NCBI GenBank assembly: GCA_963707915.1
Contig: OY970178.1
Span: 160,001 to 224,000, forward strand
Direction of reading: 5' to 3'
Length of the DNA: 64,000 nucleotides
From: Candidatus Eiseniibacteriota bacterium
Lineage (GTDB): Bacteria; Eisenbacteria; RBG-16-71-46
Numbering within the stretch: position 1 is the stretch's first letter; the number at the start of each line of letters is the position of its first letter. The position numbers were made by a program, and so were the translations under genes. Below are positions 235 to 7,742 of this stretch, one piece after another. Below the pieces are notes generated by a model. The model did not search any database, had not been told where the DNA came from, and saw only the letters and a list, made by a program, of their open reading frames with translations.

Positions 235-651
235 CTACTTCGCCGTCGCCGGGCGCAGGGTCACGCCGAGGCTGTCCTTGAAGATCTGCTCGATCTCCTC
301 CCGGGCGAAGAAGCCTTCGTGTCGGAACCGCTCCCGGCCCTTCCGGTCGAAGAAGACCTGGGTCGGGATCAGCCGGATCTTGTAGGGTCGTCCGGCGTCG
401 GGGTTCTGCCACACGTCGACGAACTGCACGTCCACCGCGCCCGCGTAGTCCACCCTGAGTGCCTCGAGGATGGGCGCCATGCGCTTGCATGGGATGCACT
501 TCGTAGCGCCCAGGTCCACCAGACGCGGGAGCGTGGCTGGCGCCGGGGCCGGCGCAGCAGCTTTGGGAGCCTTGCCTGCGAAGGCGGGCACGGCGGAAAG
601 GAGCGCCAGCCCGACGAGTAACAGGGTGGTGGATGCGAAGCGACCTCTCAC
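235..651 (-). CDS. Exported thioredoxin family protein
   Basis: GTG start with AAGGAGG RBS, signal peptide, DLGATKCIPCKRM (CxxC) and cis-Pro IPTQVFFD. Confidence 0.85.
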   Translation of the reverse strand: MRGRFASTTLLLVGLALLSAVPAFAGKAPKAAAPAPAPATLPRLVDLGATKCIPCKRMAPILEALRVDYAGAVDVQFVDVWQNPDAGRPYKIRLIPTQVFFDRKGRERFRHEGFFAREEIEQIFKDSLGVTLRPATAK

Positions 652-710
652 GGGAATCCTCCTTCGACACGGCTCACGCGAGGAACCGCGTCGCGAATGC
701 GCGACGAACT

Positions 711-944
711 CTACGACAGGATGGCTTTGATCTGTTCGACCGAGGGCACCTTGCCGGCCAGCTTCACCTGGCCGTCCACCACCAGCGCCGGCGTGGACAT
801 GACCCGGTAGCCCACGATCACGTTGAGGTCGGTGATCTTCTCGACCTCGCAGGTGAGCCCGAGCTCCTGCACGGCCTGGCGCGTGCGCTCGTAGAGCACC
901 TTGCACTTGCTGCACCCGGGCCCGAGCACTTCGATGGTGGTCAT
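711..944 (-). CDS. Small redox-active disulfide protein (MTH895/thioredoxin_3 type)
   Basis: 77 aa: IEVLGPGCSKC...YRVMSTPALVVDG. Typical partner of ArsP-type permeases. Confidence 0.9.
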   Translation of the reverse strand: MTTIEVLGPGCSKCKVLYERTRQAVQELGLTCEVEKITDLNVIVGYRVMSTPALVVDGQVKLAGKVPSVEQIKAILS

Positions 945-967
945 GGCAGCGTCTCCTTGAAGAGTCA

Positions 968-2017
968 TCAAATCAGCCAATTGAACAGGTAGCCGACGGC
1001 GATGATCCCGAGGCTGACCACGCCGAGGAAGACGGCGATGAGCCGGGGGCGGAGGACCTTGCGAAGGATGATGGTCTCGGGCAGCGAGAGCCCGATCACG
1101 GCCATCATGAAGGCGAGGACGGTGCCCAGCGCGGCGCCCTTGCCGAGGAGCGCCTGGACGACCGGGATGATGCCGGCAGCGTTGGAGTACATCGGCACGC
1201 CAATCAGGACCGCCAGCGGCACCGACCACCACGCGCCCTTGCCCATGACGCGGGCCATGAAGTTCTCCGGCACCCAGCCGTGGATCGCCGCACCGACGGC
1301 GATGCCGACGAGTACGTACGGCCAGACCTTGCCGACGATGTCCTGCACCGCCTCGACGCCCATGCGCAGGCGGATGTCCCAGCCAAGGCTCGAGGCGTCG
1401 TAGCCGACTTCGGAGACCGCGGTGTAGACCCACGGCTCGACGTGACGTTCCATGTGCAGCCGCCCGATCACCCAGCCGGAGACGATCGCGATCACCAGGC
1501 CGGTGCCGACGTAAAGGGCCGCAACCTTCCAGCCGAACAGGCCGAACAGCAGGGCCAAGGCGATCTCGTTGACCATCGGGGCCGAGATCAGGAACGAGAA
1601 GGTCACGCCAAGCGGCACCCCGGCGGTGAGGAAGCCGATGAAGAGCGGCACGGCTGAGCAGGAGCAGAACGGGGTGACCACGCCCAGGCCCGCGGCCATC
1701 AGGTTGCCCACGGACTCCTTGCGGCCCGCCAGCATCGCCCGCGTCTTCTCTGGCGTGAAGAACGAGCGGATCACCCCGACGACGAAGACGACGAGCGTTA
1801 GGAGCATCAACACCTTCGGTGTGTCGAAGATGAAGAACTCCAACGCGGAGCCGAAGTGGGTCGACGGCGAAGCGCGCAACACGGTGTATGCCAGCCAGCG
1901 GGAGAGGGGGCCGAGGGCGGCATAGAGCGCCACCCAGGCGAGAAGACCCAAGGCGACACGCCAGGGCAGCGGCAGGCTACGGCGGGTCTTGGTGCGAGGT
2001 GGCGCCGCCTCGCTCAT
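968..2017 (-). CDS. ArsP/DUF318-family permease
   Basis: [29 protein letters not shown] and LSLPE motifs. Start overlaps the acr3 stop (ATGA). Confidence 0.9.
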
Positions 2018-3162
2018 GAGTGCGCCCCTTCGGCGCGCTGCGCCAAGGCAGGCGTCAGCTCGAGGTGGAAGTAGCGCCGCCGGAACCACAGCGCCACGTT
2101 CACCAGCCCGATGAGGGCAGGCACCTCGACCAGCGGCCCGATGACAGCGGCAAAGGCGGCGCCGTGGTGGATGCCGAAGGTCGCCACCGCCACCGCGATG
2201 GCCAGCTCGAAGTTGTTCGACGCTGCCGTGAACGAAAGGGTCGCCGACTGGGGGTAGTTCGCGCCCACCCATTTGCTCATGAAGAACGAGACCACGAACA
2301 TGACCACGAAGTAGATGAGCAACGGGATGGCGATGCGCACCACGTCGAAAGGCAACTGGACGATCTTCTCGCCCTTGAGCGAGAACATCACGACGATGGT
2401 GAAGAGCAGGGCGATGAGCGTGATCGGGCTGATCTTCGGGATGAAGCGGCGCTGGTACCAGTCCTTCCCCTTCGCCGCGATCAGGCTGAAGCGGGTGATG
2501 ATCCCGGCGAGGAAGGGGATGCCGAGGTAGATGAAGACGCTCTTCGCGATCTCGGCCATCGTGATGTTCACGGCCACACCCTTCAGGCCGAACCACGCCG
2601 GCGCGAGCGTGATGAAGACGTAGGCGTAGACCGAGAAGAAGAGCACCTGGAAGATCGAGTTGAACGCGACCAGGCCCGCGCAGTACTCGCTATCACCCTT
2701 TGCGAGGTCGTTCCAGACGATGACCATGGCGATGCAGCGCGCCAGGCCGATCAGGATGAGGCCAACCATGTACTCGGGCTTGTCCCGCAGGAACAGGACC
2801 GCCAGGCCGAACATCAGGATCGGTCCGACCACCCAGTTCTGGACCAGCGAGAGTGCCAGCACACGGCCGTTGCGGAAGACGCGGCCCATCTCCTCGTAGC
2901 GGACCTTCGCCAGCGGTGGGTACATCATCAGGATCAGGCCGACGGCGATGGGTATGGAAGTGGTGCCGACGTTGAAGCGATTGATGAACGGCACGATCTG
3001 CGGGAACAGGAAGCCCCCGCCGACCCCGATGGCCATGGCGAGGAAGATCCACAGGGTGAGGAAGCGATCGAGGAACGAGAGCCGACCGACAATGCCGCCA
3101 GTGCTCCGGTTCTTGTCATGGCCTGTCACGACATCCTCCGTGGTTGCGGCATTCCGCGTCAT
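2014..3162 (-). CDS. acr3: ACR3 family arsenite efflux transporter
   Basis: [42 protein letters not shown] and GPLVEVP motifs. Confidence 0.95.
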
Positions 3163-3596
3163 CGTCCTTGCTCCTTCTTGTTGCCACCGGGTCGCGTCGC
3201 TTCATCCATGAGCCCATGGACCAGTTGCTCGATGCGGTCACGTACGTGCCGGAAGCCGTCGTCGTCGAGAGTCTTGGGATCGGGCAGATCCCAGTCCACG
3301 CGATGGCGCGTCGGCAGCCACGGGCAGGCGTCTCCGCAGCCCATGGTCACGACGTAGTCCCAGGTGATTCCGGTGGGCAAGTCGTCGAGGCCCTTCGACT
3401 GCTGCGGCTTCAGGTCGATTCCCTTCTCGGCCATGAACTGGACCGCGCGCGGGTTCACCTGCCCGGACGGCCGCGAGCCCGCGCTGAAGGCGGCGACGTG
3501 CTCACCTCCGAGAGCCCGGGCGAAGCCCTCCGCCATCTGGGAGCGGCAGGAGTTCTCGATGCAGACGAAGAGCAGGCGGGGGAAGGGCTCAGGCAT
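3159..3596 (-). CDS. arsC: Arsenate reductase, LMW-PTPase (thioredoxin-type) fold
   Basis: [17 protein letters not shown]-loop, [10 protein letters not shown] and WDLPDP. Confidence 0.92.
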
Positions 3597-4011
3597 GTTG
3601 CGGCTCCTTCCGCTGAGCGCGGCGCGGGCGTGTCCGGGAGAAGGTGGGAATCCCGGCGGGAGGGAGACTGCAGAGCTGAGTAAGCGGCACGGCGAGGACT
3701 TCCCGAAGGCGCTTGCGATCCGCAAGGATGACTGGGTCCCGGTCGAGGGGGCCACGCAACAGCGCCAGCACCGCGCTGGCGTAATGGTCCGGCGCACCCG
3801 AGAGGCAGTATTCGACCCACTTCCCGTCGCGTCGATCCTCGACGAGTCCGGCCTGCTTGAGAATCGTCAGGTGCTTGGACACGGTGGAGAGGGCCAGGCG
3901 CAGGACTGCCTGGACCTGGCAAACGCAGAGCGGGCGTCCCTCCAGGAGCTTGAGGATCCGTGTGCGGGTAGGGTCGCCGGCCGCCTTGAGGGTGAGTTCG
4001 AGATCGCGCAT
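3589..4011 (-). CDS. arsR: ArsR/SmtB family repressor
   Basis: KAAGDPTRTRIL...PLCVCQV (CVC As(III) site)...STVSKHLTILKQAGLV. First gene of the operon. Confidence 0.92.
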   Translation of the reverse strand: MRDLELTLKAAGDPTRTRILKLLEGRPLCVCQVQAVLRLALSTVSKHLTILKQAGLVEDRRDGKWVEYCLSGAPDHYASAVLALLRGPLDRDPVILADRKRLREVLAVPLTQLCSLPPAGIPTFSRTRPRRAQRKEPQHA

Positions 4012-4028
4012 GGAGTGTCTCCCTTCGT

Positions 4029-4075
4029 CACTTCGTCACATGGCGAAGTGTAGGAGGGACGCCGGGGCTCGTCAA
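4029..4075 (-). promoter_or_regulatory. Sigma70 promoter of the ars operon with overlapping ArsR-type operator
   Basis: Minus strand TTGACG(4075-4070)-N17-TACACT(4052-4047). Inverted repeat CACTTCGTCA-CA-TGGCGAAGTG (4029-4050, one mismatch) overlaps -10/+1. Confidence 0.8.
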
Positions 4076-4176
4076 GTCACCTCCTCCGATCGCTGTGAAT
4101 GCGTGGGCGGTCATGGTCGGCCGTCAGATCCGCAACCAACCCAGCGGTCGGGCTCAGCTTGTGGCATAGTAAAGCC

Positions 4177-4470
4177 ATGCGTCAGGCTCATTTCGAGTCC
4201 GCGGAAGTGCGGGGCTACATCGGCGCCCGGGGCGGGGTTCTGTGCATTTCGCTCCAGGCGATCATGCACGGCTGATGAAGGGTCGACCTCGGCCCGGTCG
4301 GGTCGCTCGAGATTCCTGAGGACGCGGCCGCCTACGAGGGTCTCGAGGGGGACGGCCTTGCGGTCCACGTGCACCGTGACGTGCTCGCCAAGCTCAAGGA
4401 TCCCGCGCGACTCAGCTTTGCCTTCGGAAAGTTCGGGCGCTGCTGGCTTCGTCTCGGAGCCGATCCCTAG
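4177..4470 (+). CDS. Putative selenoprotein with tandem Sec-Sec (CC/Se-motif, HesB-like), 97 aa
   Basis: MRQAHFESAEVRGYIGARGGVLCISLQAIMHG[TGA][TGA]RVDLGPVGSLEIPEDAAAYEGLEGDGLAVHVHRDV...RLGADP-TAG. The frame stays open with coding-like codon usage after the TGAs, and a SECIS-like hairpin follows directly. Confidence 0.7.
4279..4317 (+). promoter_or_regulatory. Candidate bacterial SECIS element
   Basis: Stacked stems AGGG/TCCT, TCGA/TCGA and CGGCCC/GGGTCG close a GGTC loop (4296-4299) that starts 17 nt after the second TGA. Confidence 0.55.
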
Positions 4471-4518
4471 GCGTTTCCGTGGACTTGGGCACCCCATGAA
4501 CTGCAGCATCCGAGCCGC

Positions 4519-4542
4519 ACTTGAGCCCTAACTTGAGCCCTA
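4519..4542 (+). repeat. Perfect 12-bp tandem direct repeat ACTTGAGCCCTA x2
   Basis: Copies at 4519-4530 and 4531-4542, ending 3 bp before a -35 box. Confidence 0.85.
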
Positions 4543-4545
4543 ACC

Positions 4546-4574
4546 TTGACGCAGGTGAGTGGGCGAACTAGAAT
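4546..4574 (+). promoter_or_regulatory. Sigma70 promoter, probably producing a leaderless arsR2 mRNA
   Basis: TTGACG-N17-TAGAAT. An in-frame GTG lies 7 nt downstream at 4582 with no RBS. Confidence 0.75.
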
Positions 4575-4581
4575 CGCCTAC

Positions 4582-4947
4582 GTGCATACAGTCGCGAGGT
4601 CCTCACCGGCACAGGTCGAGCGGATGTTTCGCGCGTTCGCCGACCGCACACGGCTCCGGCTCCTTCATCTCCTGAAGGACGGAGAGCTTTGCGTTAGCGA
4701 CATCGTGACGATCCTCGAGGTGCCGCAAGCGCGCGTGTCCCGCCACCTGGGCTACCTGCACCGGGCTGGACTCGTTGACGTCCGCAAGCAGGGGCTCTGG
4801 GCCTTTTACCGGCTCCGCCCGCCAGAATCTCCCTTCCATCAGCGTCTCGTCGGCTGCTTGGGACACTGCTTTGCCGGGGTGCCGGGACTGGCCACTGATT
4901 CCCGCCGCGCCGCCAGGATCAAACGCTCCGGTGGGTGCTGCCCGTGA
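4582..4947 (+). CDS. ArsR/SmtB family regulator with C-terminal CC motif
   Basis: FRAFADRTRLRLLHLL..GELCVSDIV..VSRHLGYLHRAGLV. Ends GCLGHCF...SGGCCP. Confidence 0.9.
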   Translation: MHTVARSSPAQVERMFRAFADRTRLRLLHLLKDGELCVSDIVTILEVPQARVSRHLGYLHRAGLVDVRKQGLWAFYRLRPPESPFHQRLVGCLGHCFAGVPGLATDSRRAARIKRSGGCCP

Positions 4948-5055: not shown

Positions 5056-5814
5056 ATGAATCGCCGTGGCCTCGGACTCGCCTTGCTGTTGCTCTGCACC
5101 CTGGGACCGGTCGCCTCGGCCTCGACGCAGCGTGACGTGGAGTCCGCCGCCAAGCAGCAGAAGATCGCCTTCATCCTGGTTTACGATCAGAGCGCGACCG
5201 GTATGGCTCAGGCACGGGACGTCATCCGCCAGACCATGAAGCAGGTCAGCGGGTCGGTCCTGCTGGAACTGGACCGTTCCGCCCCGGCGAACGCCGAGTA
5301 CGTGGCGAAGCTGCGGCTGGCCGGCGCACCCGTGCCGCTGATCCTCGTCGCGGCGCGAAACGGCGTCCTGGTGGCGGGAGTGCTGGCTGCCCAGGCGACG
5401 CCGGCGGTCCTGCTGAGCGCGGTTCCTTCGCCCAAGCAGGCGGAGATCATGCAGGCTCTCCAGGGCGGCAAGCCCGTGTTCATCACCGTGAGCCGAAAGG
5501 GCATGCCCCGCGAGCCCAAGGCGGTCGCGGCTTGCGTCGCGGCATGCGGCAAGATGGGCGACAAGTCCGCGCTGGTCCGCATCGACATGGCGGATCCCCG
5601 GGAAGCGGCCTTCCTCTCCCAACTCAAGATCGACTCCGCCGCGAAGGAGCCGGTGACGCTGGTGGTCAATGCGCAGGGCCAGGTCACAGGCTCGTACACG
5701 GAAGTCCAGGATGTGGCCAATCTCGTCCAGGCGGCGACCAGGGTCGTGAGCGGCTGCGGCCCCGGTGCTTGCGGTCCGGGTGCGGCGAGTTCCTGCGCTC
5801 CGGCCAAGAAGTAG
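5056..5814 (+). CDS. Exported hypothetical protein with two thioredoxin-like halves and a Cys-rich tail
   Basis: Signal peptide, internal duplication (KIAFILVY / KPVFITVS; PLILVAARNG / PVTLVVNAQG), tail SGCGPGACGPGAASSCAPAKK, GAGGGG RBS. Confidence 0.75.
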   Translation: MNRRGLGLALLLLCTLGPVASASTQRDVESAAKQQKIAFILVYDQSATGMAQARDVIRQTMKQVSGSVLLELDRSAPANAEYVAKLRLAGAPVPLILVAARNGVLVAGVLAAQATPAVLLSAVPSPKQAEIMQALQGGKPVFITVSRKGMPREPKAVAACVAACGKMGDKSALVRIDMADPREAAFLSQLKIDSAAKEPVTLVVNAQGQVTGSYTEVQDVANLVQAATRVVSGCGPGACGPGAASSCAPAKK

Positions 5815-5826
5815 CGGCGGGTCGGC

Positions 5827-7050
5827 ATGAACCTCCGCACCATCCTCTGGAAGGAACTGTGGCTGCGGAAGTCCCGGATGATCTCCGGGCTTCTCGCGAT
5901 CACCCTTGGAATCGCCGTCATCGTCGCCATCCAGTCGGTCGCTTCCGTCTCGGAGCGGGCCGTCAAGATCAAGCTCGACAACCTCGGCGCGAACATCCTG
6001 GTGCTGCCACAGGCCGCTTCCGTGGATGACTACTATACCGCGGACATCGACGCCCCGACCTTCCCCGAGGACTACGTGGAGCGACTCGCCACCTCCATGC
6101 TCCCGGGCGTCGACAACCTGTCCCCCAAGCTCACGCGACGGGTCAGGGTCGGCAGCGTTCCGGTCATCCTCACGGGCATCCTGCCGGCCAACGAGCTTGC
6201 CTCGAAACCGATCTGGCAGAGCGCCGGTCTGGCCGGCGCGGCGCTCGCCGCAGCCTGCGGCCCGAGCCCCGAGGTCGCGAAGAAGGGCCCCTCCTATGCC
6301 GACGAGCGCCTCCAGCGCAAGGCGATCACCGCGCTCGCACCGACGGAGGTGCTGCTCGGGAGCGTCGCCGCCCAGCGCCTGAACCTTCGGGCAGGCGGCA
6401 GGGTCACCATCGAGGGACGCGAGTTCTCGGCCGCGCGCATCCTGCCGGAGACGGGCACGATCGACGACGATCGCATCTACGCGCACCTGCACGTGGTGCA
6501 GGGCCTGCTCGGGACCGGAGCGCAGGTCAGCGCCATCGAGATCATGGGCTGCTGCTCCGCGATCTCCGACGGGCTCCTCGGGAAACTGCGGAACATCCTG
6601 CCGGACACCCGGATCACGACCATCGGCCAGATCGTGAACACCCAGATCGAGACCAATCGCTTGTTGGCGAAGGTCTCCCTGATCTTGCTGGTGATCATCG
6701 TGCTCGTGGGCGCGATCTCGATCGCGAACTACATGTGGGCCAACGTCGAGGAGCGCAGGCGCGAGATCGGCACGCTCCTCACGCTCGGCGCGACCCGCGG
6801 GAGCATCTACCGTCTGTTCTTCGCGAAGTCGATCGTCCTGGGTGTCCTGGGCGGGATCGGCGGCTACGCTGTCGGGACGATCGCTGCCCTGATCCTCGGT
6901 CCGCAGCTCGCAGGATTGTCCGTCCAGCCGATCCCGATCTACCTTGCCTGGTCCGTCCTGATCTCCCTGGTGATCGCCGTGCTCGGGAGCTGGTACCCGA
7001 CCTACCGCGCCACTCGCCTCGATCCGGCCTCGATCCTCCAGGAGTCCTAG
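5827..7050 (+). CDS. ABC transporter permease, MacB/FtsX family
   Basis: TM1, LGANILVLP, large periplasmic loop containing IMGCCS, NVEERRREIGTLLTLGA, C-terminal RATRLDP. Confidence 0.92.
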   Translation: MNLRTILWKELWLRKSRMISGLLAITLGIAVIVAIQSVASVSERAVKIKLDNLGANILVLPQAASVDDYYTADIDAPTFPEDYVERLATSMLPGVDNLSPKLTRRVRVGSVPVILTGILPANELASKPIWQSAGLAGAALAAACGPSPEVAKKGPSYADERLQRKAITALAPTEVLLGSVAAQRLNLRAGGRVTIEGREFSAARILPETGTIDDDRIYAHLHVVQGLLGTGAQVSAIEIMGCCSAISDGLLGKLRNILPDTRITTIGQIVNTQIETNRLLAKVSLILLVIIVLVGAISIANYMWANVEERRREIGTLLTLGATRGSIYRLFFAKSIVLGVLGGIGGYAVGTIAALILGPQLAGLSVQPIPIYLAWSVLISLVIAVLGSWYPTYRATRLDPASILQES

Positions 7051-7052
7051 CG

Positions 7053-7742
7053 ATGTTCACGCTTCAGGGCATCACGAAGTCCTATGCCAGCCGACGCGGG
7101 GTCGTCCACGCCCTCTGGGACATCTCCCTCAGCATCGAACGGGGGAGTTTCACTGCGGTCACGGGTCCGTCGGGCTCCGGGAAGACCACGCTGCTCCTGA
7201 CACTCGGCGGTCTGATCCGGCCAACCTCCGGACAGGTGGTGTTCGAGGGGACCGACCTCGGTAGTCTCGACGAGAAGCGTCTCGCCGGGTACCGCAATCG
7301 GAGCGTGGGGTTCGTCCTGCAGAGCTTCAACTTGATTCCCTACCTGAGCGCCTACGAGAACGTCATGGTCCCGGCGTCACTCGGTGCGTCCACCAACGGC
7401 GACCAGACGCAGCGGGCGAGGTCGCTTCTGGATCGCCTGGGAATGGCGGACCGGATGGACCATCTGCCTCGTGAGCTTTCCGTCGGACAGCAGCAGCGTG
7501 TCGCCATCGCGCGCGCGTTGAGCAACGACCCCAAGGTCATCCTGGCCGATGAGCCGACCGGCAATCTCGATCCAGCCCTGGCCGCAGAGATCCTGGCCAT
7601 CCTCCGGGATCTGAACGAGAAGGAGGGGCGGACGGTGGTGCTGGTCACGCACAGTCCCGAGGCGGCGAAGGCGGGGCGCCAGCACATACGACTGACGGCG
7701 GGGCAATGCACTGCAGAAGACCCGGCGCTCGCGGTGCTCTGA
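7053..7742 (+). CDS. ABC transporter ATP-binding protein (LolD/MacB type)
   Basis: [24 protein letters not shown] and [11 protein letters not shown]. Confidence 0.95.

Follow-up and report, generated by a model that had tools for sequence, protein, structure and literature searches.

The DNA analysed here, referred to as the window, is a stretch of 64,000 nucleotides (G000:C1:160001-224000) from a single-contig genome of 3.62 Mb. An unannotated gene of 97 codons lies at positions 4177-4470. Its reading frame opens with ATG (4177-4179), extends over 32 sense codons to GGC (4270-4272), meets two consecutive TGA codons (4273-4275 and 4276-4278) and continues for 63 sense codons up to TAG (4468-4470). 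A hidden gene with two consecutive in-frame TGAs had been described at this place in the first-pass annotation, and its coordinates and codon counts were confirmed. GC contents at codon positions 1, 2 and 3 of the 4177 frame are 0.69, 0.47 and 0.81 upstream of the TGAs, and 0.79, 0.46 and 0.79 downstream of them. This profile matches the pattern expected for a gene in a 72% GC genome, and the frame is thus coding-like on both sides. The start at ATG 4177 is backed by the alignment of homologs, which begin with MRQ or MRH. An in-frame ATG further upstream (4099) was rejected as the start; the stretch 4099-4176 is not coding-like, and none of the homolog starts corresponds to it. Two overlapping ORFs, 3857-4531 on the plus strand and 4111-4509 on the minus strand, were also set aside, as they have no Pfam match and show non-coding GC patterns.

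The gene is flanked by arsenic resistance genes (Table 1). It had been placed between two ArsR operons, and this arrangement holds: a divergent ArsR-ArsC-Acr3-ArsP-Trx row is present on one side and a second ArsR gene on the other. The order of genes after the second ArsR, namely the 252-aa ORF, the FtsX/MacB-type permease and the ABC ATPase, recurs in the metagenome loci L037 and L041. Between the divergent genes, an inverted repeat overlaps the promoter-like site 4075-4047 (minus strand) of the minus-strand ArsR operon. Judging by its sequence and position, the repeat is a candidate operator for ArsR and might regulate the gene at 4177-4470 as well.

Table 1. Features of the locus and other UGA-containing genes of the genome (window positions, unless the contig is named).
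Feature	Position	Strand	Basis
Two thioredoxin-fold genes (711-1433 Thioredoxin_3; 235-915 Thioredoxin)	235-1433	-	
ORF with ArsP_1-type permease domain (~980-1858)	968-2596	-	PF03773, 255.9 bits
Acr3-type arsenite efflux permease (SBF family)	2014-3162	-	PF01758, 208.8 bits
ORF with LMW-phosphatase-type arsenate reductase domain (~3207-3572)	3159-3797	-	PF01451, 77.4 bits
ArsR-family regulator, divergent from the candidate Sec-Sec gene	3589-4011	-	PF01022 HTH_5, 55.7 bits
Inverted repeat between the divergent genes (165-bp intergenic region), arms of 19 nt with 79% complementarity	4020-4059	.	
-10-like motif TGGCATAGT, ending 6 nt 5' of ATG	4162-4170	+	TGGCATA(C/G)T in metagenome homologs at equal distance
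Candidate Sec-Sec gene, 97 codons	4177-4470	+	Divergent branch of the CC/Se motif family; both TGAs taken as Sec
Tandem in-frame TGA, residues 33-34, candidate Sec-Sec	4273-4278	+	TGA-TGA in 35/35 homologous loci
SECIS-like hairpin, stem 4290-4295/4300-4305 (6 bp), loop GGUC 4296-4299	4290-4305	+	Conservation, covariation
Second ArsR-family regulator, downstream, with its own promoter-like site 4546-4574	4546-4947	+	PF01022, 55.7 bits
Conserved 252-aa protein (5056-5814, no Pfam match), FtsX/MacB-type permease, ABC ATPase	5056-7742	+	
Thioredoxin_7/TPR protein, WAPW-U-HTC (L075), probable selenoprotein	G000:C1:549-1925		Loop GGCC at +20
SelD with in-frame UGA (L077), probable selenoprotein	G000:C1:534720-535775		Loop GGC at +17
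UshA-like/cytochrome c554 protein, C-G-U (L076), probable selenoprotein	G000:C1:3290122-3291582		Loop GGC at +25, 9-bp stem

Homologs of the gene were sought in 206 genomes of the phylum by six-frame search, in metagenomes and among protein representatives. In 11 of the 206 genomes, the six-frame search found matches extending across the motif, 13 in all, each with exactly two TGAs inside. (All tallies out of 206 include the unpublished genome G038, and three weak six-frame matches, L068-L070, are left out of the count of 13.) The metagenome scan yielded 23 loci; 22 are true homologs, and TGA-TGA is present in 22/22. Across the genomic loci and metagenome contigs together, TGA-TGA therefore occupies the same column in 35/35 cases. 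Besides L068-L070, the matches L027, L032 and L058 and the repeat proteins P0009, P0032 and P0038 were dropped on inspection as spurious. When 1.84 billion protein representatives were searched with a profile, 39 matches were returned, 35 of which are fragments: 31 are C-terminal and start at or after residue 36, and 4 are N-terminal and end at residue 31-32. As the fragments end or begin at the TGA site, the genes appear to have been cut there by gene callers. The remaining four comprise three repeat artefacts and one protein, P0046, which spans the site with Cys-Cys. The expectation had been that homologs would carry CC, CU, UC or UU in the two columns; only TGA-TGA, in the 35 loci, or Cys-Cys, in P0046 and P0047, was found. 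In an alignment of 23 sequences, columns 33 and 34 are among the five invariant columns, G32 is nearly invariant, and the homologs align along the full length of the Sec-Sec protein.

The homologs fall into two subtypes. Subtype a (the window gene, G064, G093 and metagenome loci) has GUU-R-x-x-x-GPVGSL and a C-terminal FxFGxFGxC, and subtype b (G085, G087, G092, G086 twice, G091 and G082) has GUU…LSGRMA…EFLIPHxGxF. Clear GGAGG Shine-Dalgarno sites lie 5-9 nt 5' of the start codon in subtype-b genes. Genes of subtype a have in common TGGCATA(C/G)T, ending 6-7 nt 5' of the ATG, with no Shine-Dalgarno site there. The consensus promoter scan made no call at this motif in the window (4162-4170). 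By its sequence and position it could be a promoter, and the mRNA would then be leaderless or have a short leader. In a metatranscriptomic library, a contig of 268 nt spans 4123-4390 with four differences, none of them in the TGAs; DNA carry-over is possible for this contig.

Codon variability was compared among 13 close homologs. Third positions vary at 15/32 codons of the N-terminal part and at 46/52 codons of the C-terminal part beyond the SECIS region, and second positions at 7/32 and 22/52, respectively. Since third positions are more variable than second positions on both sides, both halves are under protein-level selection. Conservation on both sides of the TGAs, as had been predicted, is thus borne out, the 63 C-terminal codons being kept as protein across the two subtypes. 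In the nine codons directly before the TGAs (4246-4272, encoding SLQAIMHG and neighbours), synonymous sites hardly vary among the 13 homologs. This may reflect a constraint that recoding places on the nucleotide sequence upstream, or the sampling of close relatives.

Two further copies of the gene were found in the same genome. The second copy (G000:C1:1821553-1821838; loci L022/L028/L071) has the same TGA-TGA and hairpin, and its frame is shifted by a 1-nt insertion after about residue 66, which makes it a pseudogene or reflects an assembly indel. A metallo-beta-lactamase-fold gene adjoins it. The third copy (G000:C1:159351-159491; L029/L073) ends about 0.5 kb before window position 1. It consists of the C-terminal half only, carrying …YERLDAEGVAIHVQRDVL…FGSFGRC…, without the N-terminus or the TGAs, and appears to be what is left of a gene copy at the border of this arsenic island.

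These data bear on a rival reading of the tandem TGA, namely that it is a true stop. The gene would then encode a 32-residue peptide, and the downstream frame, decaying or untranslated, would belong to a pseudogene or a split gene. In this genome TGA-TGA does terminate 5 of the 769 long ORFs, the site is where gene callers everywhere break the gene, and the frameshifted paralog and truncated copy indicate that the family can decay. Against this stand the 63 C-terminal codons, conserved as described over both subtypes and in several families within the phylum. In the window sequence, the first in-frame start codon 3' of the TGAs is codon 65, so the conserved residues 35-64 need read-through. 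Full-length homologs with Cys-Cys exist, and the predicted structure forms one domain across the TGAs (pLDDT 91.5). Termination at the tandem TGA is therefore considered highly improbable.

Downstream of the TGAs, a hairpin of 16 nt is present at 4290-4305 (CGGCCC-[GGUC]-GGGUCG, MFE -9.4 kcal/mol). The long hairpin proposed earlier at 4279-4317 did not hold up, as the 81-nt region folds no better than shuffled sequences (z -0.29; 72/200 as good). The GG-leading loop that had been placed 17 nt after the second TGA is where it was expected, with GGUC (4296-4299) beginning at that distance. Folding energy alone does not set the 24-nt hairpin core apart (-9.4 kcal/mol; z -0.79, 41/200 shuffles equally good). 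The distance from UGA to loop is 20 nt for the first and 17 nt for the second codon; the corresponding values for subtype b are 24 and 21 nt. According to section 5 of PMC13188914, bSECIS elements have a loop of 3-9 nt with G in the first two loop positions, a stem of 4-16 bp, an MFE of at most -7.5 kcal/mol and a spacing of 16-37 nt. The hairpin at 4290-4305 lies within all the values quoted in that section, for both UGAs. No SECIS family of Rfam matched at the locus, where only chance-level matches were obtained.

Comparison among homologs gave the stronger signal. Conservation of the hairpin had been anticipated, and it holds for the 16-nt element. Among the 16 distinct versions compared, neither the GGUC loop nor the two C-G pairs that close it ever change, and the stem shows compensatory changes: one pair is C-G in 9 and U-A in 7 versions, another is G-C in 9, U-G in 4, C-G in 2 and U-A in 1, and a third is C-G in 14 and G-C in 2. 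The stem differs between subtypes a and b with such compensatory changes. Paired cells amount to 88.3% against 75.6% in column shuffles (reached by 0/500), the covariation score is 0.382 against 0.145 (reached by 0/500), and slid-register controls pair at 34-53%. Four pairs are changed on both sides, a number reached by 82/500 shuffles; the hairpin sequences fall into two clades, so that independent compensatory events are few. Over the hairpin (codons 35-45) only 1 of 11 third positions varies, as against the high variability further downstream. Hairpins of the homologs are longer (7-8 bp), with energies from -10.6 to -14.5 kcal/mol; outer pairs present in relatives are mismatched in the window hairpin, which has 6 bp only. 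A 7-bp lower stem, UCGAGCG/CGCUCGA, was considered and rejected, as only some of the homologs preserve it and the window does not. In a relaxed scan of both strands of the window (in-frame TGA, coding-like flanks, GG-loop hairpin), the site in gene 4177-4470 was the only one found. A genome-wide regular-expression search for a GGUC-loop hairpin after an in-frame TGA gave 14 candidates, of which only the window gene and its paralog are credible.

The genome has the means to decode UGA as selenocysteine. The genes selA, selB, selC and selD were sought as had been proposed, and all four are present: selA (543.7 bits), selB (345+24 bits), selD (368 bits) and the tRNA-Sec gene (71.3 bits), which adjoins selD. 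ARAGORN identified 53 tRNAs, and the UCA anticodon occurs in tRNA-Sec only. TGA is the commonest stop and ends 467 of 769 long high-GC3 ORFs; a genome-wide reassignment of TGA is thus ruled out. The selD gene has an in-frame TGA of its own, and together with two other in-frame-UGA genes it carries a similar CC-GG(n)-GG hairpin with the loop 17-25 nt downstream. These three are probably further selenoprotein genes. Both spacings of the window gene are inside this range. In the phylum, selA is above cut-off in 181/206 genomes, and 116 of the 121 high-quality ones have a match at E <= 1e-30; this is an unusually Sec-rich lineage. Being nearly universal there, selA cannot discriminate by co-occurrence with the gene. 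In one carrier genome, G003 (85% complete), selA was not found.

The translation with C in place of U has a single NCBIfam match, NF041239, the CC/Se motif family (seleno)protein (E 8.6e-7), and the match spans the TGAs. The window protein scores 29 bits and three homologs 33.2-38.2 bits, below the curated cut-off of 40 bits. P0046 and P0047 are bona fide members (73.6 bits), and their G-C-C aligns exactly on G-U-U; P0046 is also assigned to PF28096 by precomputed annotation. The CC/Se motif family named in the first-pass annotation is therefore the one matched, though below cut-off, and the Cys-Cys of its members falls on both TGAs. The accompanying description of a HesB-like layout fared less well: placement on a divergent branch of the CC/Se family stands, and a sequence link to HesB does not, as NCBIfam gave no match besides NF041239 at E<=1, to either TIGR01911 or IscA-HesB. 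A PDB sequence search with the window protein gave no match at E<=10. AlphaFold2, run on the 23-sequence alignment, predicts a beta-rich single domain across the TGA positions (pTM 0.82), with G-U-U (32-34) on a loop between strands 21-31 and 35-43. Cys89, conserved in subtype a, is in the last strand of the model. The best PDB matches of the model in Foldseek are to IscA (1s98; E 0.017, TM 0.45).

TGA-TGA at the position where relatives have Cys-Cys, followed by a conserved hairpin, makes a protein with two neighbouring selenocysteines the most likely product. We therefore read 4177-4470, on sequence evidence, as a functional selenoprotein gene in which the invariant Cys-Cys of the family is encoded by UGA-UGA and read as Sec-Sec, with a probability of about three in four. 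The original proposal, that both cysteines are replaced by selenocysteine and decoded from one SECIS, is thus supported by conservation, homology, the hairpin and the machinery.

The codons could also be read through without a diselenol being formed. UGA might be read as Cys (by Cys-tRNASec when selenium is scarce), by near-cognate Trp or Cys tRNAs, or as Sec at one site only, and the product would be a mixture of UC, CU, CC, WU and so on. Sec-Sec would demand that SelB act twice in succession on the one fixed hairpin, and the two UGAs are unequally spaced from it (20 and 17 nt). SECIS-independent read-through of UGA amounts to about 5-8% in E. coli, in the data given in PMC4513850. The Cys-Cys form is moreover functional elsewhere in the family (P0046/P0047). 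What speaks against such a mixture is that both codons are TGA in every one of the 35 loci and never TGC, TGT or TGG, which would be hard to explain were Cys or Trp intended. The sole tRNA with a UCA anticodon is tRNA-Sec, and both spacings fall within the range of the three other UGA genes. Read-through of this kind is thus unlikely, with a small share of the probability.

Insertion of Sec at both codons would proceed as follows. Translation would begin at ATG 4177. While the first UGA occupies the A site, the hairpin base would lie 14 nt and the GGUC loop 20 nt downstream, and SelB-GTP-Sec-tRNASec bound to the loop would deliver the first Sec. One translocation would bring the second UGA into the A site, with the hairpin still intact, its base 11 nt and its loop 17 nt away; the latter spacing is that of the genome's own selD SECIS. 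A second SelB complex would bind the same hairpin and deliver the second Sec, after which the ribosome would unwind the hairpin and read on to TAG 4468. The predicted product is a beta-rich protein of 97 aa with a possibly IscA/HesB-like fold and U33-U34 on a loop between strands. The SECIS of E. coli fdhF has an 11-nt spacer and makes contacts through G and U of its loop. SelB-SECIS association is reported to be fast in E. coli (PMC4513850), and reloading of SelB is thus plausible. The same source gives about 30-40% recoding per UGA for E. coli fdhF; if the two events were independent, about 9-16% of full-length product would result. Two recodings in a row would be costly.

The neighbourhoods of the homologs were examined for the role of the protein. 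Of 19 loci (the window and 18 others), 6 have an Acr3 gene no more than about 3 kb away, including subtype-b loci in another family of the phylum, and the other 13 have none nearby, in a scan that covered 52 ORFs passing the GC3 filter. In G087, a Trx-DsbD_TM-gene-Acr3 row is present on the same strand; Trx and DsbD_TM are also found in the neighbourhoods of G085 and G003. In a second context group (G004, L049, L051, L052 and the paralog in G000), genes for CDF efflux, ArsP and metallo-beta-lactamase-fold proteins adjoin. As the neighbourhood points to arsenic or metal handling, and by analogy with the vicinal cysteines of ArsD and MerA, the likely role would be the binding of a soft metal(loid), As(III) being the first choice, or that of a redox partner in the putatively ArsR-controlled island.

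A regulatory role was weighed against this function of the protein. The tandem UGA might chiefly be a selenium-sensing translational gate for the full-length product and for ArsR2/ABC traffic, the protein itself mattering less. Two UGAs in series would make output steeply dependent on selenium, and the regulator and exporter lie directly downstream on the same strand. A promoter-like site (4546-4574; 10/12 matches) and a 75-nt gap precede ArsR2, however, and the protein sequence is conserved while the neighbourhoods of homologs vary. The Cys-Cys members further show that the motif is a feature of the protein. A gate of this sort is accordingly rated as very unlikely.

For the Sec-Sec protein, we infer insertion of Sec at both codons, two cycles of SelB on the one hairpin, control by ArsR and the identity of the ligand. 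A full scheme can be put forward only tentatively and, taken as a whole, appears somewhat less probable than an even chance. Here one SECIS would serve two SelB deliveries, and the resulting Sec-Sec, together with Cys89, would make this family of one Sec-rich phylum a chaperone for As(III) or another soft metal(loid). If so, binding would be tighter than by the Cys-Cys-Cys of ArsD type, and the metal(loid) would be handed over to Acr3 or to a Trx/DsbD relay.

The finding has consequences for decoding, protein chemistry and annotation. In the bacterial model, a single SelB complex on a single hairpin serves a single UGA at a fixed distance. If a naturally conserved UGA-UGA is decoded as proposed, SelB can be loaded a second time onto the hairpin in the course of one translocation step, and a 3-nt difference in spacing is tolerated; the gene offers a natural means of testing how SelB turns over and which spacings are allowed. 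Chemically, a vicinal diselenol would be unusual for a protein, with a very low redox potential and very soft ligands, and would recur next to genes for resistance to arsenic and metals. The family is divided or skipped by gene callers everywhere, as the database fragments indicate; selenoproteome searches that allow one UGA per match, or discard tandem stops, will miss it.

The closest known family, NF041239 (Pfam PF28096, CC_Se_fam), likewise consists of small, single-domain proteins, with a vicinal pair at the G-C-C of P0046/P0047. Table 1 of the 2026 review PMC13188914, which has 119 families, lists it as 'CxxU, 1 Sec', whereas both positions are UGA in the window gene. The conserved C-terminal FxFGxFGxC is an addition of subtype a relative to this family. 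In the same table, the HesB-like selenoprotein TIGR01911 appears as UxGP with one Sec, and the bacterial multi-Sec proteins include the metal-binding protein NF041115 (UxxU), MbdU, TsoB (UxxxxU) and a Prx-like protein (UxxU). The multi-Sec proteins likewise carry more than one UGA-encoded Sec within a motif that may bind metal or act in redox chemistry, and many occur in heavy-metal or arsenic contexts. Unlike in these families, the UGAs of the window gene directly follow one another and have a single hairpin in common. Adjacent Sec-Sec is in none of the 119 families in Table 1 of PMC13188914. A full-text literature search found no bacterial decoding of adjacent or tandem UGA as Sec; UU forms may already be annotated elsewhere, in the NCBIfam curator notes or in Haft & Tolstoy 2025. 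The family and the mechanism of Sec decoding are thus already known, and the adjacent Sec-Sec form was not found described for bacteria.

Vicinal pairs are known from arsenic and mercury resistance. The metallochaperone ArsD has Cys12-Cys13 plus Cys18, and the mercuric reductase MerA has a C-terminal Cys-Cys. The window gene likewise encodes a vicinal pair, to which subtype a adds a third residue, a Cys, and it is situated in an ars island with ArsR, ArsC and Acr3. No homology to ArsD or MerA was detected, the fold differs and selenium would take the place of sulfur, so that the likeness is one of functional analogy only. Eukaryotic selenoprotein P resembles the window gene in that several UGAs in one mRNA are read as Sec. 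Its SECIS is in the 3'UTR and is not melted by the ribosome, whereas that of the window gene is in the coding region, 11-14 nt 3' of the codons, and would have to serve both of them before it is unwound.
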